From: Marsupella aquatica | Taxonomy: Eukaryota; Plantae; Marchantiophyta | Assembly: GCA_973895155.1 (NCBI GenBank) | Contig: OZ316893.1 | Coordinates: 806,860-870,859, forward strand | Reading direction: 5' to 3' | Length of the DNA: 64,000 bases | Part shown: piece by piece, positions 22,850 through 49,870 of the stretch | How positions within the stretch are numbered: position 1 is the stretch's first letter | Layout: each line of letters opens with the position of its first letter | The notes under the pieces: model-generated | What the model was told of the DNA's origin: nothing | The model's input: the letters and a program-made list of their open reading frames with translations, nothing else | Database searches by the model: none | Program-made: the position numbers and the translations under genes

Positions 22850-23200
22850 TTGCTATCATATCATTGTTCCTAGGTAAATTCTTAGGGTACTTAGGAAAGT
22901 ACTTTGCCTCCAAGTGCCCCACCTTGCCACAAAATTCACAGTACAACTCCTCCTTTGAAAGATCACATTCATTATTTAGCCATATGATTGGGATTACCAC
23001 AGCACAAGGGGGAAGCACAGGGGCAGCTCTGTGTGCATGTTTGGCCTTCGGACCATATTGGGAGCCTGCAAGGTGCTGCTGCATGGTGTACGGGTATCGG
23101 ACCTCGAAGCGCATGCAATGTTGACTTCATAATGTGCATGGGCCACCTCTAGCATATTGGCAATATCCTACACATTAAACAATGTATAGTTTTTACCATA
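22850..23200 (-). pseudogene. Decayed gag fragment related to the element at 39948-48772
   Basis: YTLFNV..LEVAHAHYE...QYGPKAK..NECDLSKEELYCEFCGKVGHLEA aligns with YTLLNV..LELAHAHYE...QYGSKTK..NECDIVTEDLSCDFCGKVGHLEA at 42720-43020. Confidence 0.8.
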
Positions 23201-24039
23201 TTCTAAACCTGAGGACTTCACTTGTTTTCTTCCAATCCGTCGGGCACAAAAAAGCATAGGGTTTTTTAATTCAATTTTGCTGAAGACTAATTAGTTCCGT
23301 TGCAAAGGGGTGTATAAATGCTTGTATGTATTTATTTGTAAGCTTGAGATAAGACAATTTAGAGGACCTCTATATGCAAGTGACAAATGTCAATTGAATC
23401 TTTAATTGGTCCACATGTCACTGCATCATGTAGATAGGCTTTAGAAAGCAATTAGGGGCACAATATATGGGGGTTGTCAGTGGGAATGTTGTTGCAGCAC
23501 ATACAGGAAAGAACATGATATAGTTTAGGTGTTTTATGATGACATTTACATGTTTTCCTAAATTCTAGCTCAAGGATTTGGCACATTAAAAATTCTAGCT
23601 CAAGAATTTGACACATTTGTCCACAGGGTAAGCAAAGACATGAGTGCCTATTATGGGAGGAATACCCACATTAGGGTATGCGAGGATAGGCACAGTAATA
23701 GGTACAAGAGTAAGGGCAGGAGTTGGAGAGCTAGGTGGAGCACTAACATGGGCTCCAACAACACTCTACAACGGTACCTGTGAGGCAGCCACAAGAGCAC
23801 TGTGGTGTGAGGGGGAGACCAACAATTGTTTCTTTCACATAGAGGCTGCATTTGGCATTAAATAACTTGTGTTCAGAGTGAGCTTCAGTTGAAGACTAGA
23901 GGGATGCAACAATTCAAGCTAGGAAGCAAGCATTGTGGACAAAGGATGGCGACGTAATAAAAAAAATCAATTTGCAACAGCTAAGTTTGTGATGGTGACA
24001 AGATTGTGATATTTCTTAGTCGAGAAAGGGTTAAATCCA

Positions 24040-24560
24040 ATGAGCCTAAGATTGACAAATTTTTTCAAGTTTCAAATGAGTTTTTGAATTTCTTTGCCTT
24101 TCCAATGAGTGTGAGTCTAGGAAATTTAGATTATGAGTTCATGAATTCTTTTAGCTTTCCAATATTGAGTCCGTCATTGACAAATTCCATGTCAGATTTT
24201 GTCACGGTACTAAAGAGATCATGAGGTTTTCAATCTCTAGCTTTCTATTGTGTGACATTGATATTATTCGTCAAGAATTAGAGAGATCATGAATATCTGA
24301 ATTTCTCTAGCTTTCCAATGAACCTAACATTGATAGATTTTGCAGGTACTATGGAGATGATGAGTTTTAATTTTACTTTAGTTTTCCAATGAGTGTGACA
24401 TTGAGAGATTTTATCAAGAGAATACTAAAGAGGTCACTAATTTCTCAATCTTGATCTTGAGTTTTCCAATGAATCAAACATTGACAAATTTTATCAAGTA
24501 CTAAGGAGATTGATTATTTAGTTTTACAATGTGAAACCAAAGGGGTTTTAATTATGTACA
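24040..24560. repeat. Degenerate ~70 bp tandem repeat array
   Basis: Unit approx. TTTCTAGCTTTCCAATGAGTGTGACATTGACAAATTTTGTCAAGTACTAAAGAGATCATGAG; the CTTTCCAAT-like core recurs near 24098, 24155, 24241, 24311, 24382 and 24462. Confidence 0.75.
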
Positions 24561-24578
24561 TTTATATCGATTGGTTTT

Positions 24579-24910
24579 TGTTGAACTAAGATGTCATTCG
24601 CAACGACCATACAACCATGACTCATTCCATGCACACGTAGTCGACACAATCTCTACGTGGTTCACCTCTTCTCCAAGGCTACGTCCACACGAACACTCAA
24701 GCTTTACTTCAAGAGTAGACGAACACACATCCTCTCCCTCTTCCTCAAGTTGCTCTATTACAATCAGTAAGCACCACACACCAGCGGCTTACACTAGCCC
24801 TAGTATATACAAGGTCACACACGACTAATCTAACCTTAGCTAAGATCCTAACTGTGGTTAGCCTAAGTGCCGTAACCTATGAGTCACAAGACTAAGAGCA
24901 ATCCTTAACA
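24579..24910 (-). mobile_element. Solo LTR (Copia family related to the LTR at 35482-35830)
   Basis: TG...CA ends (TGTTGAAC/CCTTAACA), GTTTT TSD on both sides; closely similar inverted copy at 60330-60663. Confidence 0.9.
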
Positions 24911-26784: not shown

Positions 26785-29640
26785 CTAATCCAAAGGGACC
26801 GCTTCCCCTTCCTCGGTTCCGGAAGTCCCTGTTGTCAATTCTGGAACAATTGTGGCATCGTCAACCATGCTATCCTCTCCGGCCTGAGGAATGTCTTCCT
26901 CACTCTCCTCATCTGTCTCCCCCTGTCTGTCTTCCTCTTCAATGTTATCTGCAAGGTTAAGAATCCTCCCTTTCAACACACTGCTCTGTCGCTCGTCAAT
27001 CTCAATAGCAACGCAATGTCTCCCCATGGCCAAGGAGGAGGTTGTCCCAGTCCCTGATCCTGAACAAATATCCAAAACCCAGTCTCCAACCTGACTAAAA
27101 TGACTCACTTCCCAATCTAACAATGCACATGGTTTCTGATAGACATTCACTACCTTGTTATCCCCGGTGTGTTTCAGCTTCTTAGTCACAGCTGCGCATA
27201 CAACCACATTGTTCCTGGATTCATTTGTGTCAAAATTGAAGTGCTCCAATGACCGTTTACCATCTTGGCTGTGAAAGCCAATTGTAAAGCACTCAAAGTT
27301 GCTTTTCAATCTTGGCCCACCAGCATTCTTCACATTATCCTTAACCCTGAAAAGTCACAAAAAGTCAAGGAGTCATTTAAACTTAGAAACATGGTTCATG
27401 AAATCATGAACAACTAATAATTGTTTTTTTCAAAAACAAATATTTCTTACCACAGACAATTCTGGAACCCTCCATTACACTCCACTTTCAAAACGGTCTT
27501 GATGGCCTCATATTGGTCAAGGCTGTGGTGAATGATAATACGCCACAACTTTGCGGCTAGTAGCCACCTTGAAAGATTGGACCATTTTTGTGATCTCCTC
27601 AATTCCCCATCCAATAGTGTCCTCATGAAGACATCCAGGCAATGCAAATCCGTAGGGAATATCCACTAAAGCTAATGTGTAAGCCCAACCCGGAACCACC
27701 TCGTGTAATCGCTGAGCATCATGAGTAAAAATATCATAGTGCACGTCACCAAACTCTAGATGCTCAAAAGAATTTGGATGAAGTTCCCCCTCTTGGGTTT
27801 GCTGACTAGAAGTCTTCATGGATAGCCAATTTTGCGCTTGCACAATATGCGCATTGAATTTGTCCGGGAATGACTTGAGATCTTTGCCTTCCTCATCTCC
27901 CTTCTTTTTCCGGGAGGTGGTATCTTTCTACAAAAGGGAACCTTACAATTAGAAACAAGGATTCCAAATATTCAATGAATTCAAACAATCATTTGAAGAA
28001 AGGTGACAGAATCTTACCCATGTCTGGAAAACAGGTACGAAATTCTTAAGCACATTGTCCGTGCAATGCTCAGGGTACTTGGTTTTACAACCTGACCAAC
28101 TCTCCTCGTGTAAACATGTGAGGAAGGCCTTCTGCACCTGCATCTGAAATCTGTGTCAAGTAAATTTGTGACCCATTTCCTGTAAAGAGAGACTTTCTTT
28201 AGTAAGAACTCTCTGTAACACTGGGCAAATCATATCAGGATCTTTCAAGGCCTGCATGTGTCTCCACTCTGTTAATTTCATGTCCTCATAAGGCAATTTG
28301 GCATCTCCAGACTTAGAGACTTTCTTCTTGCCCTTATCTCCTTTTTGACCTTTGATCTCACACATCTCCCACTTGTCACAAATCTGCGTCACAAATGACC
28401 ACATAGGATCTTGTTGGAATGCCAACTCAAATAGGTTATCGTTGGCATTAAGAACCTCAACATCCTTTCGCACACCCCAATCCTTGAGATTGATTTTAGT
28501 AGCACACTCTTTCTTGAAATCCTGGTTGGACGACAATCCATTCTCCACAAATCTCATGTGAATATAATTTACTCTCTGGATTGTCGTCATCTGTTGTCAA
28601 AATTCAGAATCAATATTGTGACTCCACGCCAGGTTTCTTGCCTTTTGCACACTCAATCCCGCAAATATCCAAGATTGCACTCTCTGAAATGCCTTGTTGT
28701 TAGGGAACTGAAGAGCAAGGTCTGCTTTGGCACAGGCTGAATGGTTGCCCCCAATCACATAATAATGGTAATCAGATTTCCTTGAAAAATCAAAGTCTTG
28801 CCTAGTAGCACACTCCTTCGGATCCACCAAGAGGACAAACGGAGCTGCAAGTGGACTGGCACCTACAGTCTTCATCCGCAAGGTCAATTGGGTCAAGAAA
28901 TATGGTTGGATGTGTTGAACCTGGTAAATGGGCAAGCCCACAGCCTTCTCTCTCACTAGAGGGTAAAGTTGACCAATGTCAACCGTCACGGTCTCCTCTT
29001 GAACACCACATCTTCCCAGAATCTCCTCCTGGTACAATACTCGTGCATCCATTGACATTGATTGAGCCTTTTACTCCAAATGCATCGGAATTTTCTCCAA
29101 AGTCTTCTTTTTTGACTTTGGAGCACTGGGCTCGGCAGGCTCAGGAGTCATAGCAGGTCGCTTCTTTGAAGAAGTGCAAGTTCCAGTCGTACCTTGTGCC
29201 AACCCACCACTCAAAGCCATTCCCTAGGATGATCTACCAACTTGAGATCCCCCTCCAGATGCTGCTGCTTCACGGGAGGTTGTAGGCGCTACCACGGTCA
29301 AAATGTCATCGGGTAAAATGCTAGGCCTGGATCCAGAAGGAACACCGGAAGCCCTAGATTTGGGTGGACGACTTACCCCCTTCTTTGCCGATCTTTTTTG
29401 GAGAATCTCTCGCAATTTTTGGATTGCACTCTTTAAAGTGCTAGCATGAAATTCGAACACAAAACCAGAAATCTTTCCCGCGACGTCGTGGTAATGTTCC
29501 TCACTCAAAAGAGACTTGAGAGTCTCAATGATGCTATCGATGTCCTCATCGAGATAGCAGGTGGCAGCCATTCCGGAAAACCTCTCCACATCCACGACAA
29601 TCAAAGTTGACGTTTCCTTCGTTGTGATCAACATGTTCAC
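26785..29640 (-). pseudogene. ParB-like domain plus beta-class amino-DNA (N6-adenine/N4-cytosine) methyltransferase fusion; introns 27928-28017 and 27347-27450
   Basis: YYVIGGNHS (ParB/Srx-like motif), ALVDIPYG (motif IV, DPPY-like), YQKPCALL (motif X), GDWVLDICSGSGT..AMGRHCVAIEID (motif I), in beta order. Two GT-AG introns restore the frame (QTW|KDT; CLW|VKD). Four in-frame stops and one frameshift (~27550). The true start may lie further upstream. Confidence 0.85.
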
Positions 29641-30631: not shown

Positions 30632-33600
30632 ATGGCGGCATGTTGCAAATCAGATGATTATTCAGATGGAGTTTTTGATGATGTTTCATTGCCAGATGGC
30701 CCCTACACAGTGGTTGGCCCAGATATCCCTGGAATAACTACTATTTTAGATATGCCACCCCCCCACCCCTATGAGCAAGTTAAAATGTACTCCTTTACGA
30801 CTTGCAATTAGTGGGAAGAAATCATTGGTCGGTGGTAAGGAGAGGTCAGGGAGCTCCTTTGACTCCTTGGAGAGTATCGGTCCCCGTGGATGTCAAGTTG
30901 TGTCTCCTTTGTCACCAACAAAGGACAAATTGGGTAGTAATGTGGAAGGTTCAATGTCTATTCGGATGTCTGGGAAACGGTCTCATGAATTCATGAAGAC
31001 TGGATTTGGAAAGACGAAGAAGGTCCTAAGTGGGGCAAATGACAAAGATTTTTGCAGTCTCCAAAGTGTTCAGCGGCTTAAGCAAATGCCAAAAAGTAAA
31101 ACCTTTGGTAAGCCAACGTCGGAAACATTTCACAGGAGGATGAGGGAAGAAACTAGACGACCAGTGTTATTGAAAAGTATTCCAGAAAGGAATTCTAATG
31201 TGCGTTCCTCATTGTTACCTGGGAGTCATGGTGTTGGGGCAGGGAGCGGATCAAGTCACGGAAACTCAAACAGGGAAACCAACCCTGGTGGAGAGGGCCC
31301 CTAGGAAAATATTGAAAGGGTTCCTACACGGTAATGGAGGGATTTCTGAAATACGCCCAGGTATTCCAAGGCTGCATAGAGTGAAGAAAGAGCCTCCATC
31401 TCCGAAGGCTGCAGGTCTGGAATCTCGGGATGTTCAGAAGAAAATGTTGGTGACCATTTCATCATCGAATGATAGCGAGTCCTTGGAGAGTGAGGATGAT
31501 GATGATGTTCTGGTGGCATCTAGTTGTTACAAACGTACGAGCAACGCCACTTTGTGTGAAACAAAGTTGAAAGAGGAGGATATCAAGACAACAAATAGGA
31601 AGAATTGTTGTCAGAGTCATTGTCTCCTAAGTCTATCTCCAAAAGAAATTCGTGAGGTGCGTTCTAAATTTTTGAGGCAAAAATCTCAGGATCGATCTTT
31701 ATCTTTGCAGTGGCTTATAAAGCGAGACGGAAATGAAGGAGGGAGGCAGACTATATCTTACACGTTTGGTCAAAAGAGTATTTGTCAGAAAGCTTTCAAG
31801 CTTATATTTTGCATTGGCAATCAGAGATTAAATAGAATTTTGAAATTAGACAACCAAGACTTAGGATATTCTAAACCAGTTGGACGCTCTCCATCTGTTA
31901 AAAGATTAGTCTTGGTCAGTTGGCTTAGGTAATTTTTTGAGACACGCGTGGAAACATTGCCAAATAAAGAAGTTTCACATTTACTGGATAATTATTCAAA
32001 GCTGGAGGTATGGAAGATCTACGATTCCAACTATGCCAAGATTGATGAATCATCAAAAATATCCTATCGACAATTCTTGAAAGTTTGGGTTCAAGAATTT
32101 GGTCATGTGAAGATTCCTCCAGTCAATCGATTCAGTGCTTGCGCGGATTGCGAGGAGTTCAAATCAATTCGGGACAAAGCTGTCTCAGAGACCGAAAAGA
32201 GTAAGTTACTTACAAGTTTGACAAGTTTTTTTTTCAAGAATATGGCTTAGCACATGATTTCTATTTTTTTTTAAGAAACTAACAAGTTGTTTTTCCAGGG
32301 CGAGGGGAGATTATGTTACAAAAACATAGAGACCAACAATCCAAAGAACGTGAGAAACTCGCGAAGCATCGTAAGAAATGTTTTTCAAATCCTGATAAAT
32401 ATTTGGGAGTTGTCATTGATGGGATGGATCAAAAGAAGACAAGGTTGCCTCATTGGCCGCGTCCCCCAAAACTCGGGGGGTTGACTATCAAAAATCTTAG
32501 GAACTACGTGCGATCCAAAATAGGTATTTTTGGCAGATTTTAACTAAATTTTTAAAAAGCGTAGGAGGCAAAAGAAGGTATTATAAACTCATGTTTATAG
32601 AATATTCTTTAATATATACCCTTTATAAAGTAAAATAGGTTATTAATATTGAAAATAGAGAATATTCTTGGAATATTTTCTTTATAAAATAGGTCTATTT
32701 ATATTAGGCTAGGATCGCACGTGGTACCCCAAAATATACGCTTAGTTAACCCCCCGAGCCCCAATATTGGTGGACAAAACATGTTTGATCCAAATGCACG
32801 TTGTCGGATGCCTGGTTTTCAATGGTGCACTATTTTCAAGAGTGTTTCTTAATTATCTTGTATGGCATAATGATGGAAACTTGATAGTCACAATCCTCCA
32901 AAGGGTGTTTCACGAATGGGAAGAAAAGCCTAGTGGCTTACCGCCTGTTCTCTATCTTCAACTTGATAATACCATTAGAGAAAATAAAAATAATTTACTC
33001 TTTGCCTATCTTCATATGTTGATTCGAAGAAAGGTTTTTTGGAAAATCAAACTAGGATTCTTGTTGGTTGGACACACACACGACCAAATAGATCAAATGT
33101 TCAGTCAATTTTCTAAACGACTAGCAAGGTTTAAGGCATTCACATATGAAAGCCTATGTGATATTATTTGTGAATCATATCAACCCCAACCAAATATCAC
33201 TCTTTTAAAGGAAACATATGATTTCCGTCAATATGCCTTCTCAGATCCACCTTTAGTCATTGAAAGGATTCGAAATGTTACCTTCCACCACCAGTACAAA
33301 TTTGCATTTGACAAGTTGGAAGATCAAGTTCCAACCCAAAGGGGGAAGAAGTTTTCCACGGACTCAACTTGGAAACCTGACGGAGGCATGAAATTTTTGA
33401 GGGAAGAGGAGCCAAAAAAGGTGATGGGTTGTGCTCCCGGATTACCCCTTTTCAAAAAGGGGGATAAGAACGTTACAAGGACTAAACCAAATATGCTAGT
33501 TCTTCAAGAATGACTTTGAAGGAGATGGATGATTCGTTAAATGAGATTCAAAAGGGAATACTTGCAGTTGAAACTTTATTCTCAGAAGAGGAAGTGAACT

Positions 33601-35481: not shown

Positions 35482-38400
35482 TGTTGAGCATAGACGACAT
35501 TCGCAACGACAAGCCCATGAACCATCCAACGCACAAGAGTTGACACAGAGAGATACGTGGTTCACCTCGGACACATGAGGCTATGTTCACGGGAACACAC
35601 AAGAGCTTTACTGCACTCTAGGCCGAACGGCCATACCAAACATCCATAGCGCAAGCTCTCCCTATCGCTCAACTAGCTCCGTAACAATGAGCCTAAGTTC
35701 CACCCAGGGTCTGGCATCAGCTTTGGGCTATATACACAACAGCACTACCGCTAACTTTAGCTAAGTCCTAACCCAAGTTAATCTAACTGTGGTTAGTTCA
35801 TGAGTCACAAGACTAGAGCAATATTTAACAAACTCCCCCTTGACTCTTGTCTTGGGGACTGGACTAAATGCTACCATATGGAATCCTCAACGGGAAGTTC
35901 TAGACAATCACCAAACCAAGTCTCCCCCAAAAAACCACAAGGGTTAACTAGAACTAAGCCGTAGCCAAACAGGAATGAGTAATCCATATACAAATAGTCA
36001 CACATTGCTAAATAACTCTACTTGCACTACAACTGCAAAACCTGCAAAGTAGCACGGTGTCTTGATAAACTTTCCAAATGAATCACTTTGGTAAAGGCAT
36101 CAGCGGGATTAAGTTTTCCATCAATCTTGACTAGCTCAAAAGTTTTATCAGACACTGCTTTCCTGATAAAATGGTACCTGATATCAATGTGCTTCACCCT
36201 GCTATCCATCACCTGGTTAGCAGCCAAGTGAAGAGCACTCTGACTATCACAGTTTAGAGTCATTTTGCCATGCTCTAAACCCATCTTTGCGATCAACTTG
36301 TCCAACCAAATTGCTTCCTTTGTTGCTTCTACTGCTGCAACATACTCTGCTTCTGTAGTAGACTGAGATATACACTTCTGCAAGGTAGATTTCCAACTGA
36401 TACATCCTCCTCCAAGAGTAAATACAAACCCAGTTGTAGACCTCCTTGTGTCCAGACAGCCTCCATAGTCAGAATCTACATAGCCAACTAACGTTCTATC
36501 CTGTGTTCCCTTCACATACCCGAGAATCCATTTCACAGCTTCCCAATGTATCTTCCCTGGATTTGACATGAATCTGCTAACCTTGCCCATAGATAGGGCC
36601 AACTCAGGCCTAATACAAGTCATCAAATACATCAGACTGCCTATTGCCTTCTCATAAGGAATCTTAGCCATCAGACCTTTCTCCACAGCATCTATAGGAG
36701 AGAAAGCCAATGATAACTTGAAATATGAAGCTAAAGGAATACTCACTGGCTTACAGTTTTCCATGTTGAATCGTGCAAGTACTTTTCTTGCATACTGGTC
36801 TTGACTCAAGCAGAACTGTCCAGTATCAGAGTTCCTAAAAATCTCCATCCCTAAGATCCTTTTGGCCTTACCAAGATTCTTCATCTTGAATTCAACACTC
36901 AATTTTGCCTTGAGACTGTCAACCTCAAATTGATCTTTAGCCACAATCAGCATGTCATCCACATAAATCACCATAATGATGAAACCAAATACATCATTCT
37001 TGACTGATTTCGTATACACACAAGGATCATACACCATCCTTGTAAAACCTTGAGCAAGCATGAAATCATCAAACCGCTTGTTCCACTGTCTGGGAGACTG
37101 CTTCAATCCATACAAGGACTTGAGCAATCTGCAAACTAAGTTCTCTTGGCCCTTCTTCATAAAGCCTAGTGGTTGTCTCATGAAGATCATCTCTTCCAAG
37201 TTGTCATAGAGAAAAGCAGTAACAACATCCATCTGATCCATCACCAGACCAAAAAACACAACAAACTGACACAAGATCCAAATTGTGGAATACTTAGCCA
37301 CTGGTGAAAAGACCTCATTGTAATCCACTCCTTTCTTCTGAGTGAATCCCTTGGCAACAAGCCTTGCCTTGTAGATCCTATCTCCACCCTCTGAAGGACT
37401 GTCCTTCAACTTGTAAATTCACTTGTTGTCCACCACTTGCTGACCTCTTGGATCGAAGCTCCACCAGCTCCCATGTTTTGTTGTCACTCAAAGATTGCAA
37501 CTTCCTCTGCATTGTTGCATTCCACTCATGCTTTTGCTCTGAAGCACAAGCCTCACTATACGAAGAAGGCTCTCCTTCTTCCAAGATCAAAGCCATATCA
37601 TCATCATCAGGTGCAATGTCAATATCATCTAGCTTAGATGAGTCTGCCCATTGACCATACCTGGTAGGAGCTCTAGTAGAACGACTGGAAGTTCTTCTAG
37701 TAGATGACTCAGACTGATCTGCAGTTATTGCTGGTTGAATTTGAGGTACCCAGCAACAATATGCTCCTCTTGTTCCATCGGAGGAACCAGCTCCAAGCCC
37801 GGAGCTTCTCTATCTCTCTTGTCATGAATAGCATCATGACTAATCTCCCCCTCAACCCGGTCTAGGATGAGAAATTTTCCCTTGTCAGTATGGGAGTCTT
37901 GAGAACTCTCCCCCTCCTTTGATGATCTGGATTCATTCAAAGACACATCTCTACTGACAATTAGTTTACAGGTTACTGGATCCCATAACCTATAACCCTT
38001 CACACCTTTTTGATAGCAAAAAAAATGCACTTCTTTGACTTGGACTTGAGCTTGGATCGAAGGTGGGAAGGTGTAAGCACATAAGCATCACACCCAAAAA
38101 TTCTCAGATGTGAGTAATCTGCTGGACGCCCATACCTCATTTCAAATGGCGTCTTGAATCCAATAGAACTTGATGGAGAAAAATTTACCAAATAAGCTGT
38201 AGTGTTGATAGCTTCAGTCCAAAACTCATGTGATAAGCATGATTGGCTCAACATACTCCTCAAGCGCTCCAATAGTGTTTGGTTGAGTCTCTCAGAAACA
38301 CCATTCTGTTGAGGAGTATAACTTGTTGTGAGATGGTGGGTAATCTCTTTCTCCATAGTATTCACCGTCGTCATCCGATCAAAGATATCTCACCTTATTA

Positions 38401-38915: not shown

Positions 38916-39149
38916 ATATTGTAGGTAATTTGGAATTTTGAGTCCAAATGACCCTCAATTTATTTCTCAAACTTCTAGGAACCAAATGGGTTGAGAGCCC
39001 ATGATCTTGTTGGTAATGAAAAAATTTGTCAATGTTAGATTCATTCTCAATATTATCATTTTCCAAAATATCTCTAAGTGTTTAGCACAAAAGGTTCATT
39101 GAGAAATGAGTGAGAAACAAGATCATTGTTTTTTGAAGTTCCGCTAGTT

Positions 39150-39440
39150 TTGTATAAACATCACATTGGTACTTTTTGTCAAGTACCAATGCCAGGAAAT
39201 CATAAGTTTACTAATTTTTCTAGGTTTCCAATGAGCCTCATGTTGGCAAATTTTGTCAAATGAGTAGAGACCATGAGTTTTTCAAGTTTTCTAGCTTTCT
39301 AATGTGTGACATTGGGAGTATTTGTCAAGTACTAGAGAGATCATGAGTTTCCAAATTTTTCTAGCTTTCCAATGAACGTAACATTCAAAGAGTTTGTCAA
39401 GTACTAAGGAGATGATTGGTTTTTTAATTTCTTTAAAACA
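39150..39440. repeat. ~70 bp tandem repeat array (same family as 24040-24560)
   Basis: TAGCTTTCCAATG-like cores at ~39224, 39295 and 39365 (70 bp period). Confidence 0.75.
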
Positions 39441-39947
39441 TTGATAGACTTTGAGTGGTGGACCTTGCCACCCAGCGCTCTCACCAATCCCAACACCCTC
39501 GCCTAAGTGCCCAAACGCTTCCATGGAACTCCTTCAGCAAGTAACTTGATGCCCCTTTCACCCCCGGCGGCCATTCCCATACGAAGCCGCACTTGCTCCC
39601 TAACACGACCGTCGCTCATTGGCCCTCACTGTCTGCACAAGCAACCAAACACTCCGGTAAATAACCCAAAAGGATCTAGATGTCCCAAGTCTAGCATCCT
39701 AACTCAAGCTCAATAGATACTGATAAGTAGATCAACGATAGGTCCTCCGTGACCCGCATGGCCTTGCCATAAGCAAGAGCCAGAGCCAACACCCACTGTT
39801 TGTCCAAAGTAGCCCCTCTACGGGTGCAGCCCGTGCTCCCCCATGTAACTATCCATCACCAGCATAGTTTGTCCTAAAACGTTGGGACCAAATTGGCCCG
39901 ACTCTAGCAACCAACTCATGGTTCTTGCTCAATTGATAGCCTAGGGG

Positions 39948-40306
39948 TGTCATGCCGAGGGACAATGCCTCTTATGCACATCAGCATGTCCCTCGCATGC
40001 CCGCTAGGTATGTAGTTAGGGCTAGTGTACTACTTGAGTTAGCAACATGTTCTTATAGCAAATGTCAGGCGTTCTTGAAGCAAACGCGCTTGTTAGTGTG
40101 ACGCCAGGACTTTGTTTACTTAGGGCATGTCTTTCTTTGTAGGTTTTCAGTTCTTCTTGAATTGCTGTTGACAGAGCTCAGACAGTACTCGTCGGTTTTG
40201 TACACGGGATTCACACAGTGATTCGTTAGATGCTCCCGACCGATCTTGGCATCCTGCCAGTTTTCGATTCGATTTCAGTATAATTGTTTCTCTTACACCT
40301 TTTATT
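39948..40306 (+). repeat. Terminal repeat A1 (359 bp)
   Basis: Highly similar to 48239-48596; similarity stops after CCTTTTATT. Confidence 0.93.
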
Positions 40307-40879
40307 CAAGAAGAATTGCCAAGTTCGCGGTGAGGAGAAGAAGATAGGAGACATTCTTGTCTCAGCTGCTTAGGTCGGTACATATAATTTCCGTTGAAGC
40401 CGGTGCAATTTCTTTGAGCAACATTGGAATGGCGGGTTAAAAGTTATGGGTTTAATGTGGTGTTATGTGTATACACATAACATCCCCGTTTGAGCCCGTG
40501 CTTTTGTTCTCGGCTACCTTCGTAACCCCTTTTGCTATGTGCTGCCTTCGACTGTCACTGTCGACTGTGCATCGACTACCGACTTGCTATCGACTGCCTT
40601 TTTCTTTCGTGTTTTTGCCCCTTTCCAACGTTTCTTGTTTCCGGCCATGCACGACCACCTCTCGGCCGCCGCGCGACCACTTCCCTTCCAACCGCGCGCC
40701 CCATTTTTTGCTTTTTTGCCGTTTGCGGCCGTGGTCTCCCCTTTGCCTCCCTCCCGATCGCATAAGGCAGGCTGTGCATAGGGCATCGTGCCCTCTCGTT
40801 TATGCCAGCATTTAATTAAGGAGGAAGGGAGCTGACTAGCTGAGCACAAGTGCGAGGAGGGCCGAGCAGGCCAGCACAA

Positions 40880-41280
40880 GCAAAAGGAGGGCACGAGGCC
40901 CTAGGCAACTTTAAAGCAGAGGGGGAGGGGGAGTGCATTCAACTCCCTTCTCAGGAGTCCTCCTGCAGGGCACGAGGCCCATTTAGCAGCATTAAAGCAG
41001 GGGGAGACAGAGCCGATGCAGGTAGCAGCGCAATGAGTGGGCACGAGGCCCTATGCTGAATTAAAGAGGGGAGGGGGAGTTCACATTCGACTCCCTTCTT
41101 GGGAGGCCCACAGTGCATTAACAAGGGAGGGGAGAGTACATTGACTCCTTTCTCTGGGGAGTACTTTCACCAGGGCACGAGGCCCACAGAAGCATTTAAG
41201 GAGGAGATTGAAGGGGAGTTCGTAGCCTCCCTCTTCGGGAGCTCATAAGGAGAAGGGGGGGCACGAAGCCCTATGCAGGG
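40880..41280 (+). repeat. Array of hairpin-forming repeats in the 5' leader
   Basis: GGGCACGAGGCCC at 40889, 40968, 41039 and 41173, a variant at 41259, interleaved with GGGAGT..ACTCCC-type stems. Confidence 0.8.
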
Positions 41281-41769
41281 CCCGAGCCATTGATTGGGGC
41301 CCCATTTCTTTTCTTTCGCTGCGCCCTTGCCTCGCTTCCTCGCTTCGCCATGCCTTTTCCTCCTTAATTAAGTGCTCCACAGCCTGTACATACGTAGGGT
41401 CTCTTCGCTTTTCCCTTGTGCTTACCAGTTTCTGGGTCCACAATGGGGCCCGATGTGTATACACTTAAGGGGCCCGTATGTGTATTCACTTAAAGGGGGT
41501 CCATTTTCAGTGTATTTTTCACTGCCACCGGCATTAGGCCTTTCCGGACAATTGGTCGCCACTGGTCATCTGCATCGGGCTACGGGCCCAGGATATACAC
41601 ATGGGATGGCAACCCACATCGCCTATGTATATACATAGGCAAGCGCGATGGGGACACAATTTGAGGTTTTAAGGGTCCTTTTTCCCCAATGGTTTTTCGA
41701 CGGTGATGGGTTTTCTCAGTCTTTATACATTTTGTACATTACCTGAGTACATCGGGTACTGCCACACAA

Positions 41770-43320
41770 CATGTCAGCAGACGAGCTGGGAGGTAGCAGC
41801 TCACCGCCACCAACACCCCGGTACCACTTACAGAGTGATCCACGACCGTTGGTGCCAATTTTATTGGAGTCTCGGCCATTTTGACGACGTCAGCAGACAG
41901 CAGCAGCACCCACACCACGCAATCCTTCTACTACATTTGGCAGTCGCTTCACCACTACTCCGAAGCCTGCTATCACTTCATTGCCATTTACCCCTTCTGC
42001 ATTTGTGGTTGTTCCTGCTTCACAGACATACAGCATGGACGCCAGCCACTCATCTGGCCGCATTGAACGCTTCAGCGGGCGGCCAGGCACTGTTTCTTTG
42101 CGTGAGTTCAAATCCACTTTCTACACTGTCGTTTACGAATTGGAGTTGAAATATGGCAGCAATTTCACAAATACTTTTGCATTTAAGCAGCTAGCCAGGT
42201 ATGTGCACCATGAGGCTTTGGATGTGTATGAGCAGCACTCTCAACGGCTGCTTGCTGTCATGCAATTGCCTAACCCTACCTATGCTAGTGCAATTGCGGC
42301 AGCCTCACAATTGGCCTTACAGATGCCATTGCAGCCCATGTTGCTGCTCCTGCCACTTCCCCTCCTACTCCAGTTCCTACCACGGCGCCAGTTACTCCCA
42401 CTATCTTGGCACAGGCTACATCAGGCATTTCTCCCACCATTGATTCTCCTACCTTTGCTGATCCAGTGGCTGAGTTTTTCCAGGTTCTTGAATTGGAATT
42501 CCCAATCAAGAGTGTTGACAAAATCATGCAGTTGGCCACCTTTGTGAGGCAGCGCGATAAATCATTGAAGATGATGTATCGTCGGCTTCTCAAGCTGAAG
42601 GAGGACACCCAGAGCATCACTGACCTGGAAGCTGCTCATCGTTATCTTCGCGCATTGGAGGGCACACCAACTCTCCATTCGCAAGTCTTGCAACAAGTAT
42701 TCTCAGAGTTTGGAGATAGCTACACCCTGCTCAATGTCTATGACACTGCTGAGAAACTTGAGTTGGCCCATGCACATTATGAGACCAGTATTGCGCATCC
42801 ACCGCGATCCAGGTACCAGGCTGCTGCCCCTACATTGGCCACTCCTTCCAGTGTGCCACAGTATGGTTCCAAGACCAAGCCAGCACATGCTGCTTTCATG
42901 CTGCCATCTTGAAACTACTGTGGTAACCCCAATCACAAGGCTAATGAATGTGATATTGTTACTGAGGACCTATCTTGTGATTTTTGCGGGAAAGTGGGTC
43001 ACTTGGAGGCAGTTTGTTTTGCCAAATTCCCAGAGAGGAAGCAGCTATGACAGCAGACCCCTCATCCTACTCCTGCTTCCACTCCCGATAAAGCTAGGAG
43101 GGCTCCTACTACATCAGTTGCTCCTGGCTCTTTCCAGTGGCAAAGCACCCAGTGCTAACAAATTGCCCAAGCAGCAATAGAAGCAACCAGCTCAGAAGGA
43201 GGCTCACAATGCATAGGCAACTCAACTCCAATCTCTGACTCATGAGGTTGAGCCTTACGTGCCCAACTTGCCAACATCAAAGGCAAGTCCACTGCCTCTG
43301 TTGGTCCTTCTCAACCGGCT
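41770..43320 (+). pseudogene. gag with two CCHC zinc knuckles (frameshifted)
   Basis: IERFSGRPGTVSLREFK..., then (C>stop)NYCGNPNHKANEC and CDFCGKVGHLEAVC at ~42910-43020. Boundaries approximate. Confidence 0.75.
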
Positions 43321-43326
43321 GGTCAC

Positions 43327-44835
43327 GTGCAACCCATCCCTAGCCCAGGCACCACTGACATTTCAGCACCTCTACCTCGCTCTTTCTATGGTTTGCCATT
43401 TGATGCTCATATGGGTGAGTGTGTGGTATCCTCTACTACACAGCCTGGCCTTACAGCAGACTTTTCAGATTCATTCTGCCCTTCCTATTTTGCTTACCAA
43501 CAGGCCAGTGCTGCTTCCCGTACTGCTCCCACACGCCGCATTGTACAAGCTAATGGTCTTGCTGCTGGTCCTATGACTAGAGCCAGGAGAGCTCGGGCTG
43601 TCATGCCCCAATCTTTTCAGCCACTCACACTTGCTAAAGAGCGCACCTTGTTGGCGAAGGGGGAGGGAGTTGCAGCTACATCCATTCCACCACCAGGTGC
43701 TGCTGACATTTCACAGGGAGTTGTTTCTCCTAAGCTGCTTGAGCATTTCACCTCTGATATGGCACAAAGGATTCTTACAACTCCACTTTTTAGTTGCCAT
43801 GATTTACAACTGGATGCTAGAGCCATCATCAGAGCGCTAGAGGGTTCACTGCATTCTTCATCAGCCCTTGTGACACCAGTTTTGGAGGTCCAATCTCATG
43901 TACATACTGGACCTTCTTCTTCTCCATTGCATGCTTCCACTAGCTTGGCTATCCCAGTACCAATTTCCAGTGGTAGAGAGGACAGTATTGCTGCAGATTG
44001 TTTGACCGGAGCTACACTTGATTTTGGTCATGCTGCTCCATCTTTCCTGGCTATGCTATTGAGTGGGAAGACCGTGGACACTAACTCCCTTCACAAGGTA
44101 CCTCATCATTTGCCAAAAGTGGTGCCTAGTGACAGGACTTTAGTTTCCACCACCATTGCCATTGTTGACAACAGGAATTCAGCGGTCAAGTTGGAGGGTC
44201 ACACTCCTCAGGTGGTCATGCTAGACACAGGCGCTCAACCAGTGATATTGGGCATTCAGTTTGCCAAGAAGATGGGACTGTTGACTGATCATTTACAGCA
44301 ATCCAAGTGGCACATTCGGACTGCTAGTGGCACTGTGGAGGATGTGTTGGGTGAGAGTTCTACTTTACTCACTTTTAATGGAGGTACAGATCAGGAATTG
44401 CATTTCCCAGTCAAATGTTTGGTTACCAATGCCACTACGTATGATGTGCTCATTGGCCAGGAGGCTTTGTTCCCACCAAGTTTTACCATTGACAACTGGC
44501 ATGAGCATGCCTACTATAGAGTTGATTGGCATACGGATGGCTCACACTTGGGCTACATTCCACTTGATTTTCATGGTGCTCATACACCTATGGCTCACCA
44601 TTGTGTTTTGAAAGCAGTGCACACAGCTACCTATGTCAACCACCCATTGCAGGATTGGATTGAGGAGGATGATGTTGAGGTGGTTGCTGCACATGCTGTT
44701 GCACGTATAGCAGCACTTTCCATCAATGTGGATCATCAACCAGAGGTGGTACAATGGCTCCAAACAGCCCATGGACCTTTGGTGCTGCATTGCGCAAATT
44801 TGAGGACCTTGGGCAGCACAATGGACAACCAATAG
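43327..44835 (+). pseudogene. pol N-terminal part with aspartic protease
   Basis: VMLDTGAQPVILG (DTG active site), IRTASG, YDVLIGQE. Confidence 0.85.
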
Positions 44836-44882
44836 CCCCAATCTTGAGCGCACCAATTACATGGACTCCTCCTCCGGCTGGC

Positions 44883-45850
44883 CTTACATTGCTTGAGCTT
44901 TAATTTTTGGTGGCATTTCTACAGGCTTGGAAGCTCTCCTACAGTCCGGCATGGTGGTGAAGCAGTACATCTACATGGACATTGATCCAGGTGCAAGGCA
45001 AGTGGTTGAATCCCGTCTGCTGGAATTTTCAGAGCGATTTCCCCAGCAGTTTCCACACAGTGCATGGAAGTCTGCATTTTCTTTCTTCCCTCCAGATATC
45101 CAGCTTGTCCAGCACCGGCACTTAACCCTTCTTGGCTCCCTTGATTTGATCATAGCTGGTTGGGAATGCCAAGGGTTTTCAGCTGCTGGTCACGGTGCTG
45201 GACTGCATGATTCTCGTTCTGGCCTTTTCACAGCATTGGTTCAGGTTCTCACCTGGGCTCAAGCCCTCTACCCTGCTGTTGGTTATATCATTGAGAATAC
45301 TCCCTCTCAGTTTGACCAACGTCCACAGGTCAAAGAGGATTTCAGTGTGGTCCAACACTACTTGGGATCACCCCTTCTCATTGATGCAGTGCACTGTGGT
45401 TCTTATGCACATCGTCTTTGTAACTTTTGGACTAACCTTGCACCACCTTCCTTGCTGGAGTTAGCTCTTCACCACACATCCAGGCACACTAACCTCACAG
45501 TGGACCAGATTTTGGATCCTGACAGTTCTTGCCAACCAGTTACACGGCAAGAGCCAACACCTTGGTATCCAGCAATACCATTGGACAGCCCCGTGCTGCT
45601 TGGCCTACATTTGTATCCTTTCCAGGTGCACATGCCTTTCAGGGTGATGGTCCTGGCCTGGTTTATCGACATTCTACCGGTACTTGGGATGAACCTAGTT
45701 CTGAGGAGAGAGAACGGGCTATGGGCTTCCAATCCGGTACTACAGGCCACACCCACATCACCAGGCTGGCCATGAATGCTTTACTTGGCAGGGTAATGGA
45801 TCTTAATGCTCTCACTTGGCTTCTGGTCACTTGCATCCTTTTTCAGAGGA
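44883..45850 (+). pseudogene. DNMT3-like cytosine-C5 DNA methyltransferase domain within pol
   Basis: Motif I LLEL[5 nt insertion]FGGISTG, II MDID, IV LIIAGWECQGFS, V RSGLF, VI IIENT, VIII HRLCNFWTNL, IX ERERAMGF, X LLGRVMD; frameshift at ~45570. Confidence 0.92.
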
Positions 45851-45860
45851 ATGCATCCTT

Positions 45861-46450
45861 CCTACTGATGTTCACACTCTCAGGAGCTTTATTGGGTTGT
45901 GCAATTACTACCGGATCTACATCAAAGATTTCAGTACCATTGCACACCCATTGTACTCTTTGTTGAAAAAGAATGTGCCTTGGACATGGAGTACAAATGC
46001 TGAGGTAGCATTTGCCACTTTGAAGGAGAAGCTCTCAGAATACCCAGTGCTGAGAAGACCTGATTTCAGCAAGGTCTTTGTGCTACACACAGATTGGAGT
46101 GCCCTTGGGATTGGTGCCATTCTGGGCCAGCATGATGAGGAAGGTAAAGAGTACGTCATTGCCTATGCATCTAGGAGCAACAATCAGGCAGAGAGTCATT
46201 ATTCTTCTTATGAGGGTGAATGCCTTGCTGTTGTGTGGGCTATCATACATTACAGGCCCTACCTCTATGGGACCAGGTTTGTTCTCTACACCGACCACCA
46301 GCCCTTGAAGTGGTTGATGACCAACGACAAGCTTACTGGCAAGCTTGCTCGTTGGGCGCTCATACTCCAGGAGTATGATTTTGAGGTAATTCATAGGCCT
46401 GGTGTGACACATCAAAATGCTGACACTATATCCCGCAGCCCTTTGATTGC
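45861..46450 (+). pseudogene. RT thumb/connection and Ty3/Gypsy RNase H
   Basis: LRSFIGLCNYYRIYIKDFSTIAHPL, FVLHTDWS, YEGECLAVVWAI, YTDHQPL, LARWALILQEYDF, NADTISR. Confidence 0.93.
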
Positions 46451-46559
46451 CTCTGATGATCCCTCAGATGCACAGCAGGATTTTGACCAGGTTTCCATCC
46501 TGCCTACATTTCATGCATCTAGCTACCTATCTTGCTGTGCTGCCATGCTACATTGTTGA

Positions 46560-48021
46560 CCAACCTGTGGTGGACATATGGGAGGACAGCGACACTCTGA
46601 GATTTCTGCAGCATGGGGAGTACCCCACCCATGTTACTGCTGCCCAGAGAGACCAAATTCAGCAAAGGTCCAAGCGCTACTTGTGGAAGGGAGATCATCT
46701 TGTGCGTTGCTTGCCAGACAGGGAAGTGGTGGTTCCACCCATTCATGAGAGGGTTGGCCTTATCCGTAAGGTACATTCTGAGCTTGGTCATTTTGGTGTT
46801 AAGAGGACTTACAGCCTCTTAGTCCCCCATTATCATTGGAGAGGCATGCATGGCCAGGTTCGAGATGTTATTGCCAGGTGTGAGCAATGTGATAGGGTGA
46901 GGACTTCTTTCACATCTCGGCAACCCACACTTCATCCACTCCCTATGCAGGGCATGTTTTATCGTTGGTCATGTGATTTGGCTGGAGAATTACCCCTCAC
47001 ATCTCGGGGTAATCTCTCGGGGTATGATCATGATAGAGCATTTCTCCAAGTGGATAGAACTTGTGGCATTGCCGGATAAGACCTCCCGTAGCACCAGCCA
47101 GGCATTCCTGCAACAAGTTCTCAGCCGCTTTGGAGCTTGTGCAGAATGTCTCACTGACCAGGGCTCAGAGTTTAGAGGAGAGTTCCAGGAGCTGCTTGAT
47201 CAGGCCCTCATTGATCATCGTCGGACATCACGAGATCACCCACAGGCAGATGGCTTGGCAGAGCGCATGGTTCAAACATGCAAGAAGGGCCTTCGGAAGA
47301 TCTGCCTCACCAAAAACAAGGAGGATTGGGACCTGGCCTTACCCTACATTGCCATGGGGTATAGGATGTCTAGACATGCATCACTGTCTAACTTTTCTCC
47401 CTACTTCTTGTTGTTTGGTCGTCACCAGTTCCACCTTCTGCTATTGCTGCTCACATGCTTCAGGTGGTGGACTTGGATTCAGCTGTGACTTGGTCTGATG
47501 TGATCTCTGAGAGGGCTGGCCTATTCAGGAGGGTTATGCCCATGGCCATGGAGAATTTGGCCATTGCACAGCACAGGGACACACTGCGTTATGCACACAC
47601 ACGAGGGGGCACTTTTCAGCCCAAGGTCAGGAAGTTTGATGTGGGAGATTTTGTGTACTTGCAGCGGCAAGCTAACGACACCCTGGACACCTCTACTAGT
47701 CGTACTATTCTCAGGGTTAAAGCTATTCGACCGTCTGGAGTGCTAGAGTTACAAGGGGCAGATGGGCGCATAATTGCTGACAATGCCAAGAACTGCGCCC
47801 CTTGTCATCTGCCTAACCTGGATCCCACCATTGTGACTTCTACTTGGATTCCACCTGTGGACTACCCTTGCAAAGTGTGTTTGCGAATTGATGATGCTGA
47901 CCAGATGCTGCTGTGTGACAATTGCAATGGAGGGTACCATCTTTTCTGCCTTCGGCCTGAACTTACCCAAGTGCCAGAAGGGTTATGGTTTTGCCCTTCC
48001 TGTGCTCCACGTGCTACCTGA
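46560..48021 (+). pseudogene. DDE integrase with HHCC, GPY/F-type region and C-terminal PHD finger (frameshifted)
   Basis: HSELGH...CEQC; WSCDLAG, LTDQGSEF, GLAERMV; KFDVGDFVYL; CKVC..LLCDNCNGGYHLFC..WFCPSC (C4HC3). Confidence 0.92.
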
Positions 48022-48060
48022 ATTTTCTTCAGCCCTCCTTTTGGCTGTGGTCTGGGGGGG

Positions 48061-48772
48061 ATACAGAGGTTTACACCTCCACTACATACATACCACTTCA
48101 TTTCCTTTTTCTTGGCACTTGTGAATGTGATTGGACTTTTTCTATGCATGTTGGTTGCTAGCAGCTTGCACATATGCCTTGCCGGTGACTTATATGTTTT
48201 CGATACACTATGGCTACGATACTATATGTCACGACAGTTGTCATGCCGAGGGACAGTGCCTCTTATGCACATCGGCATGTCCCTCGCATGCCCGCTAGGT
48301 ATGTAGTTAGGGCTAGTGTACTACTTGAGTTAGCGAATGTTCTTATAGCAAATGCTAGGCGTTCTTGAAGCAAACGCGCTTGTTAGTGTGACGCCAGGAC
48401 TTTGTTTACTTAGGGCATGTCTTTCTTTGTAGGTTTTCAATTCTTCTTGAATCGCTGTTGACAGAGCTCAGACAGTGCTCGTCGGTTCTGTACACGGGAT
48501 TCACACAGTGATTCGTTAGATGCTCCCGACCGATCTTGGCATCCTGCCGGTTTTTGATTCAATTTCAGTACAATTGTTTCTCTTATGCCTTTTATTATAC
48601 AGAGGTTTACACCTCCACTACATACATACCACTTCATTTGCTTTTTCTTGGCACTTGTGAATGTGATTGGACTTTTTCTATGCATGTTGATTGCTAGCAG
48701 CTTGCACATATGCCTTGCCGATGACTTATATGTTTTCGATACACTATGGCTACGATACTATATGTCACGACA
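48061..48772 (+). repeat. B1-gt-A2-B2 right-end repeat block
   Basis: 176 bp B at 48061-48236 and 48597-48772; GT spacer 48237-48238; A2 48239-48596; G7 tract immediately before B1. Confidence 0.93.
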
Positions 48773-49549
48773 GGGGCCAAGTGCACTTGAAACTCAACCT
48801 CCATGCCTACTTGGCATTGCCTCCCTAACGAAGGCTTCTTTGGGAGATTGAAGGCGGTTTGGCTGCTATTTTGGGATGATTTGGCAAGCAGATGAGATAC
48901 ACCTCACAAACCCCAAGAATCTATGGCATCCCCAGACCCAGTTAAGCTCAAGAGTGTGTAATCCTCCTTGAGAACTTTCCAACACACCTAAGAAGTCTCC
49001 CCTTGGTGTTGCAACCGCCGCGGTTCACGACTTGGGCTCGTTCTTGGACCCCAAGCCACACGTTTGGGCACGTCACCAACTGGCTATGCTCATAATTTTC
49101 TAGTTAGGCGTCCGTAGGCAAAGTGCCTTAGCCCACTGTGATCAGACTGACCTAGTGCTCATGCCTTGGCCCTCAGAACCTATTGTCACTCACAGTCCCC
49201 GCGCGGCCACACTTGGGTTAGGCCGTATTTCATGCCTTAAGCGTTCGTTATGCATGAAGTCCGTTAGCCTTAGGCCCAAGAGGAGCTTTCACTCAAACAC
49301 TCAGAATTCAAAGTCCGTCTGGGGGGTCTGGACTATTGACCTTGAGTTCGACCCTTTCCCATGACCCGACCAACCCCAAACTAATCTAAGTCCTTAGTGT
49401 GCATCACTAGCTTAGTGCCTTGCCTTCGCTAGTGCAACGCCTCATGGCCCACATGCCTCTCCATGCTAAGTCCTCTCCAAATGGTCGTTCCAGGCTTGGA
49501 CCATAGGAGAGCTCGACGGTGACTTAAATGTTAAAGTAATCAAGTTCCA

Positions 49550-49870
49550 CAATTTTTTGTCAAATGCTAAAGAGATTATAAATTTTTAATTTTATCTAAC
49601 TTTCCAATAAGTGTGATATTGAAAGATTTTGTCAAAACAATACTAAAGAGATCATAAGTTTCTAAATCTTTCGAGCTTTCCAATGAATGTAACATTGACA
49701 AATTTCATCAAAATACTAAGAAAATTTATTATTTAGTTTTAAAGTGTGGAGCCAAAAGAGTTTTAACTATTTACATTTCTGTCAATTGATTTTTCCAAAC
49801 TTGCGAACTATTGAAAAAGACAAGTAAAATACTGATCTATCATTGACAAGATATCAGAATGATAACTTTG
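49550..49870. repeat. Continuation of the ~70 bp repeat family and its downstream flank
   Basis: Same units. 49700-49870 matches 24480-24578 plus 24916-25000, i.e. the site without the solo LTR. Confidence 0.75.

Follow-up and report, generated by a model that had tools for sequence, protein, structure and literature searches.

A split-repeat Ty3/Gypsy element with DNMT3-like and PHD domains in the liverwort Marsupella aquatica

The window analyzed here is a stretch of 64,000 nucleotides from Marsupella aquatica (contig OZ316893.1), and the element under study occupies positions 39948-48772 of it, with all stranded features on the forward strand. The element belongs to a high-copy Ty3/Gypsy family that encodes DNMT3-like and PHD domains and is laid out as A-internal-B-GC-A-B; this copy is dead, having lost the core of its reverse transcriptase (RT). 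Repeat alignment places repeat A1 (359 bp, beginning TGTCATG) at 39948-40306, repeat B1 (176 bp, ending CACGACA) at 48061-48236, repeat A2 (358 bp) at 48239-48596, and repeat B2 (176 bp) at 48597-48772. B1 and A2 are separated by a GT spacer (48237-48238), and A2 directly abuts B2 at 48596/48597. A1 and A2 are 95.5% identical, and B1 and B2 show 3 differences in 176 bp. The element termini are TGTCATG...CACGACA, and the flanking letters are GGGG on both the left (39944-39947) and the right (48773-48776). A polypurine tract of seven G residues (G7, 48054-48060) lies immediately before B1, and a G tract takes the same position directly 5' of B in the moss-type family of relatives and in the four contigs L081-L084 described below. 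No TGG follows A1 in this copy, and no search against a tRNA set was made. Re-alignment confirmed the coordinates, the A and B repeats, G7, GT, the TG/CA termini, the 4-bp duplication, and the lack of TGG after A1, all as given by the original prediction, which was made from the letters of the window. The element is inserted in a different repeat, which also occurs unoccupied in sequence data of the same species; these data comprise four runs drawn from two studies, and one of the runs may come from the source sample. The empty-site paralogues skip 8829 bases in 4/4 runs (6, 2, 3, and 5 contigs). This skip equals the 8825 bases of the element plus four, supporting a 4-bp target-site duplication. 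No single contig in the four runs covers the element from end to end. The depth in run X1 is ~1e5 over the open reading frames (ORFs) versus ~80-110 for the flank contigs, which is a measure of abundance and not of copy number.

Between the repeats, a fast-evolving 5' leader (40307-42034) contains degenerate 70-150 bp repeats at ~40880-41290 (repeat families D8, D10, and D12), with low depth at 40311-41658. A gag-like region and linker with frameshifts and stops follow at 42035-44184, as found by tblastn to the relative P0002. This region has no Pfam match, and it contains two Cys/His knuckle-like motifs near 42915-43020, judged by eye. Next come an aspartic protease (44185-44469; PF13975, E 2e-7; PF13650, E 3e-6) and a frameshifted DNMT3-like C5 cytosine methyltransferase domain (44903-45846; PF00145, E 4e-6). 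For the methyltransferase of the intact relative P0003, the top 25 PDB matches are all DNMT3A, DNMT3B, or DNMT3C, with weak E values of 2e-4 to 1e-2. Complete relatives possess the RT catalytic core where the window copy has a gap (deletion point 45846-45861), and a contig of run X3 differs from the window upstream of 45860. As the RT core is deleted, the window copy is non-autonomous. The RT thumb/connection and RNase H remain at 45861-46556 (PF17917, E 3e-39; PF17919, E 9e-33), and a frameshifted DDE integrase with an H2C2 finger, an rve core, and a C-terminal part lies at 46567-47868 (PF17921 and PF00665). The spacing between the second D and the E of the integrase is usually 35 residues. 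Here it is 34 residues in the window (47027-47242) and its relatives, in 64/64 motif matches. The integrase is followed by a PHD finger and a stop codon (47869-48021; PF00628, E 2e-12), and no chromodomain was matched by Pfam. Domain searches of the 23 ORFs of at least 100 aa did not match a tyrosine recombinase in any of them. The protease and DDE integrase of the original prediction thus stand on Pfam matches to protease, RNase H, H2C2, and rve, and its assignment to the Gypsy type was right; the DNMT3-like domain, the PHD finger, and the loss of the RT core had been overlooked.

The domain order in the window, protease-(DNMT)-[RT core deleted]-RNase H-integrase, is that of Ty3/Gypsy elements, and the order including the RT core is present in all complete moss-type loci tested (a set of 14). 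The best PDB match of the Pol of relative P0010 is the Ty3-G Gag-Pol, with an E value of 1e-94. Among named proteins, the closest matches come from the liverwort Calypogeia fissa (72% for the methyltransferase and 84% for the integrase end), followed by those in Sphagnum, Marchantia, Klebsormidium, and Pleodorina. The position of the methyltransferase differs within the lineage: the bryophyte-type proteins have it between protease and RT, and 24 algal-type proteins, those of Pleodorina among them, have it between RNase H and integrase. Comparison of these sequences indicates a domain move within one lineage. Three Closterium proteins (P0146, P0147, and P0149) carry a related methyltransferase with 31-32% identity, and one of them contains PF14223, a Copia-type Gag family.

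To describe the family, we analyzed the best 80 of 537 confirmed moss-type loci. Eleven truncated or uninformative loci and two with partial A2 were set aside, and the other 67 were collapsed by flank. This left 55 independent right ends, 31 of the form B-xx-A-B (xx, spacer) and 24 with B only, with no locus in both classes. Fourteen independent loci have both ends, nine being A-internal-B-xx-A-B and five A-internal-B. Ordinary terminal long terminal repeats (LTRs), which would place B at the left end, are found in 0/14 of these complete loci, and they are absent from the window copy as well. The original prediction would have been overturned by ordinary AB-internal-AB copies, and none was found among the 14. 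Exact 4-bp duplications flank 10/14 complete loci, and two more differ by one transition; cross-pairs of flanks match in 1/182 controls. A duplication of 5 bp was rejected, as 0/14 loci match. The call is least sure for L072, the end of which is decayed.

Contigs of the window's species agree with these boundaries. They leave the element exactly past the B end (48236) in 4/4 runs (at least 15, 8, 14, and 12 contigs), with unrelated flanks there, and among the matches listed they enter at the A start (48238/48239) in 3/4 runs (10, 9+9, and 8 contigs). Beyond these fixed ends, flank agreement of the same-species contigs is 0.40-0.48 among the matches listed, and 0.40-0.47 for those that leave at the B end. 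Judged from these sequences, the split-repeat layout characterizes the family, whose insertions end at the same bases and differ in their 4-bp duplications. Independent insertions with common A/B boundaries and different duplications were expected by the original prediction, and this part is borne out; its GT spacer is not general, as described below. The A-internal-B copies account for 24/55 independent right ends, and 4/5 complete ones have 4-bp duplications (e.g., L013, L031, L059, and L064). These copies are predicted to be dead ends, as they contain no 3' R region, and they could stem from one-LTR circles, from cutting at both junctions, from recombination between B copies, or from collapse during assembly. 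The terminal CACGACA motif repeats at ~15-nt steps inside moss-type B ends (e.g., L038), resembling subterminal binding sites.

Four further contigs, L081-L084, have integrases with 46-56% identity to the query. They are eukaryotic retrotransposon contigs located in prokaryote genome bins, probably as contamination; a search of the three bins holding them returned those same contigs only, and two scans of viral contigs found no relatives. In a tree of relatives (48 rows, midpoint root, no outgroup, the Klebsormidium nitens row removed by a length filter), the 22-row bryophyte-type clade (support 100/98) does not include L083 and L084, which sit among the RNase H-DNMT-integrase proteins. L082 reads B-GC-A-B and then flank. 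L081 has identical 127-bp ends, probably a collapsed assembly, and was used only for its junction and primer pair. A fixed, nucleosome-sized B of ~176 bp was considered and rejected, as B is 108 bp in L081 and L082 and 56-57 bp in L083 and L084.

The internal B|A junction of the window copy reads GACA-GT-TGTC (48233-48242). Base 48238 is C in 92-97% of the depth in the four runs of the window's species, so the junction of the family is the palindrome GACA-GC-TGTC and GT at 48237-48238 is a variant of the window copy. The spacer is 2 nt in 33/33 moss-type copies (AC in 11, GT in 10, GC in 9, and other in 3). One C-to-T change in CAGCTG, on one strand or the other, yields AC or GT, and we infer from plant CHG methylation that these spacers arose by such decay of the site. 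The sequence GACAGCTGTC is found exactly once in each of L081-L084, 56-108 nt past the G tract. The integrated ends of the element are the two halves of the junction palindrome without the spacer. As originally predicted, the internal CA-xx-TG junction is likely the cutting site of the integrase, a reading backed by the conserved palindrome.

Repeat A carries a putative signal for priming. A 15-nt inverted repeat (I25) joins the predicted transcript 5' end and self-primer CAGTTCTTCTTGAAT (40148-40162; A2 copy at 48438-48452) to a predicted self-priming primer-binding site at 40304-40318, which overlaps the A1 end by 3 nt. The complementarity reaches 13/14 and 14/14 matches versus a control maximum of 11, and the 15-bp primer stem appears in both the minimum-free-energy and the centroid folds (z -2.05). 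In 14/14 moss-type copies, the A1 end finds its best complement 32-35 nt past a TATA box, which is the expected transcription start, and in 11/14 this match is better than 99% of 600 control windows. The primer pairs of the window and the moss-type copies are two mirrored changes apart, and L081 has an unrelated primer pair in the equivalent place. This complementarity looks like a signature of Tf1-type self-priming; the original prediction had left the mode of priming open. With the primer at the end of A and the G tract at the start of B, the replicating LTR would be B-GC-A. The working LTR is thus likely B-GC-A starting at the G tract, in support of the functional repeat originally proposed, and A1 is likely its 3' part, carrying the promoter, R, and U5. 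A1 and A2 of the same copy have common subfamily indels in 8/9 copies, including a 17-nt duplication at the extreme A end in L017.

The A|B joint behaves differently from the B|A junction. Among 31 independent moss-type joints classed by eye, 13 are perfect, and the 18 imprecise ones comprise 7 that are short by 2 nt, 3 that retain 1-2 letters of the primer site, 1 with a single G, 1 with an extra A, and 6 with other deletions. The single G is where the G tract would leave one. The joint also differs among copies with the same subfamily indel (L034 and L042; L017 and L078). The B|A junction has a constant length across copies while the A|B joint varies, which is the pattern expected of joined cDNA ends. 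A2|B2 is therefore likely the joint of two cDNA ends, as far as can be judged from these genomic copies.

These features suggest the following mechanism. Transcription would begin ~200 nt into A1, and the first 11-12 nt of the RNA would anneal to the primer-binding site at the end of A1 and prime cDNA synthesis, in the manner of Tf1. With the plus strand primed at the G tract, standard LTR replication would then give linear cDNA with B-GC-A LTRs. The outer cDNA ends would be ligated, most likely in a two-LTR circle, forming the A|B joint. In the upstream LTR, the integrase would then nick each strand of GACA-GC-TGTC behind its CA. The two ends so formed, CA-3'OH with 2-nt 5' overhangs, would have the known geometry of processed retroviral ends. 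The integrated product, the fifth step, is seen in the genome, with TG...CA ends exactly at the internal junction and a 4-bp duplication. We consider the core of this mechanism, namely self-priming, the B-GC-A LTR, cutting at the palindrome, and joined ends, to be quite probable, and the full mechanism with its circle-first order to have an even chance of being correct. Just short of even is the chance we give to a broader proposal: that an old green-plant Ty3 lineage, ranging from chlorophyte-type algae to mosses and liverworts, has relocated the attachment sites of its integrase into the LTR, where they form a fixed GACA-GC-TGTC palindrome, and that its sole way to integrate is to open this junction in a circle that is self-primed and joined at its ends.

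Several points weigh against this mechanism. Each step except the integrated product is one that we infer from genomic sequence. The mirror form A-B-GC-A-internal-B is seen in 0/14 complete copies versus 9 copies of the window's form (p = 0.004). A two-LTR circle with two identical palindromes should also give the mirror product, so its absence calls for an added bias. Either the integrase commits to the upstream junction at an early stage, or linear cDNA is cut and its outer ends are then joined by the host. In standard LTR replication, the upstream junction becomes double-stranded first. The circularized cDNA of the original prediction is thus supported in its joined-end A2|B2 by the variation of the joint, and a plain symmetric circle conflicts with the missing mirror copies. 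The duplex-energy test of self-priming is weak, with 2/16 cases beating 95% of controls, and the window copy lacks a TATA box 33 nt upstream of the predicted primer. A1 and A2 of L071 differ by a 19-bp duplication, and some of the 2-nt-short A|B joints may be the result of post-insertion slippage in an ATAT run. Target-site duplications are absent in 2/14 complete moss-type loci, a second B is not seen in L083 and L084, and the moss-type loci were assembled from short-read metagenomes and represent old copies, with A1 and A2 87-90% identical.

The explanation that competes best is that the element is cut first and joined later, although we regard it as rather unlikely. Priming and LTR would be as above, the integrase would cut the upstream junction of linear cDNA and insert both ends with no free circle, and host repair would either join the outer ends, giving A-internal-B-GC-A-B, or anneal the two B copies, giving A-internal-B. 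This would account for the 9:0 lack of the mirror form and for the frequent A-internal-B copies with duplications (4/5 complete; 24/55 right ends), and variation of the A|B junction is equally expected. However, it requires a transient chromosome break at every insertion, 26/31 joints are changed by no more than 3 nt with no large filler, and A-internal-B can also be obtained from one-LTR circles, B-B recombination, or assembly collapse.

Templating of the Ngaro/PAT kind appears improbable. Here the transcript would run through A2-B2, the internal repeats would template or splint the A|B and B|A joints of the circle, and the DDE integrase would open it, so that A|B would be inherited. The layout is identical to the split direct repeats of PAT and Ngaro, as presented in the available parts of two accounts (PMC4157794 and PMC8969392), and 13/31 A|B joints are perfect. 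On the other hand, A|B coincides with the primer-site boundary and the G-tract boundary, it varies within one subfamily and at times retains primer-site letters, and the ORF searches above gave no recombinase match. A one-off rearrangement, an autointegration product, or a misassembly of an ordinary AB-internal-AB element, for which the damage to the window copy and the missing spanning contig could speak, is largely refuted and scarcely credible, given that B is at the left end in none of the 14 complete relatives, that B-GC-A joints occur at high depth in four runs with both termini common to many insertions, and that an identical layout is in print for Klebsormidium (PMC5890265).

That source also answers the original statement that no Gypsy lineage with this layout was known, which no longer holds. 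The Fig. 4c legend of de Mendoza et al. 2018 (PMC5890265) presents KnitGypsy-Dnmt3 of Klebsormidium nitens with DIRS-like repeats, A-coding-B-A-B, and domains typical of Gypsy, and it shares with the window element a DNMT3-like domain in a Gypsy Pol. In its accessible parts, that account gives no target-site duplication, priming mode, junction palindrome, integration mechanism, or PHD (PMC5890265). The name KnitGypsy was not found beyond this paper in the literature searched, which did not include Repbase Reports, theses, or subscription journals. The integrase-PHD protein of K. nitens is 49% identical to that of the window, and no K. nitens methyltransferase was among the protein-search matches to the window or its relatives. 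Common descent of the window family with KnitGypsy-Dnmt3 is likely, and the window element is probably a land-plant member of this kind. The layout is thus not new. The junction palindrome, the self-priming pair, the variable A|B joint, and the product asymmetry were not found in the literature searched, and they may be in print elsewhere. The PHD-bearing Gypsy-7a_cRei of Chlamydomonas was considered as a further case of the same layout and rejected, as near-ordinary LTRs are described for it in the accessible part of its account.

Other systems share single features with the window element. In the accessible parts of the accounts, the Tf1/sushi and Tcn1 chromoviruses have a primer site complementary to the predicted RNA 5' end instead of a tRNA, and the Ty3 domain order (PMC4600332 and PMC6317226). 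However, they are described there with ordinary LTRs and chromodomains, whereas the window element has split repeats, a PHD finger, a DNMT domain, and no chromodomain match. PAT, TOC, Ngaro, and VIPER show the A1-internal-B1-A2-B2 order with an internal copy of the joined termini, as far as their accessible accounts go (PMC4157794, PMC7192593, and PMC8969392), but these accounts give them a tyrosine recombinase and no duplications, in contrast to the DDE integrase, protease, G tract, and 4-bp duplication of the window element. The window element is not of the PAT/Ngaro kind, as a tyrosine recombinase was not found and a target-site duplication is present. Compared with a canonical Gypsy element, it lacks terminal LTRs and has the TG...CA termini, the 4-bp duplication, and the polypurine tract. 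The integrases of foamy virus and HIV-1 cut palindromic LTR-LTR circle junctions, according to the accessible parts of two reports (PMC1180852 and PMC4372172), and the likeness lies in a DDE integrase that turns a palindromic CA...TG junction into processed ends. In those viruses, however, the cDNA ends themselves meet in the palindrome, and its cutting is a side route, whereas in the window family the palindrome would be built permanently into the LTR and the end joint is retained within the inserted element. In IS3/IS911, IS30, and IS21, a DDE enzyme likewise acts on a pair of abutted ends separated by a spacer of 2-3 bp, but these are DNA transposons: the transposase itself makes their circle, and reverse transcription plays no part.

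If the broader proposal is true, the lineage would be a natural retroelement with a circle junction as the obligatory integration substrate. The debate on whether joined-end circles can be integration precursors for a retroviral-type integrase has drawn on experiments with foamy virus and HIV, where they are a side route; a lineage whose sole attachment site is an internal palindrome would offer a natural test, with a 10-bp substrate ready for assay. It would also show that split direct repeats can arise without a tyrosine recombinase. For annotation, we note that the copies look like DIRS/Ngaro elements by their repeats and that LTR finders likely miss them; LTR_FINDER is the basis of REXdb, and the accessible part of the REXdb description makes no mention of PHD. 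DNMT3-carrying retrotransposon proteins are found in the land plants Calypogeia, Sphagnum, and Marchantia, in contrast to a 2019 opinion paper, according to which 'land plants, such as tracheophytes' lack transposons that encode a methylase.

Other elements are also found in the window. Degenerate tandem units of ~70 bp flank the host repeat on both sides (39154-39435 and 49541-49711) and occur again at 24194-24579, and they are accompanied by a 29-nt inverted pair at 39017/49682. A related gag fragment on the reverse strand (22863-23203), with 37-42% identity to P0002 and 67% DNA identity to 42720-43011, represents a second, older element. Broken ORFs at 26.8-34.3 kb are possibly a large DNA transposon. 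An N6/N4 methyltransferase-like ORF lies on the reverse strand at 26788-27354 (PF01555, E 1e-7), and a DUF7869 ORF on the forward strand at 32746-33510 (E 5e-51). A 463-aa ORF on the forward strand at 36027-37418 contains Copia-type RT and RNase H motifs, judged by eye.

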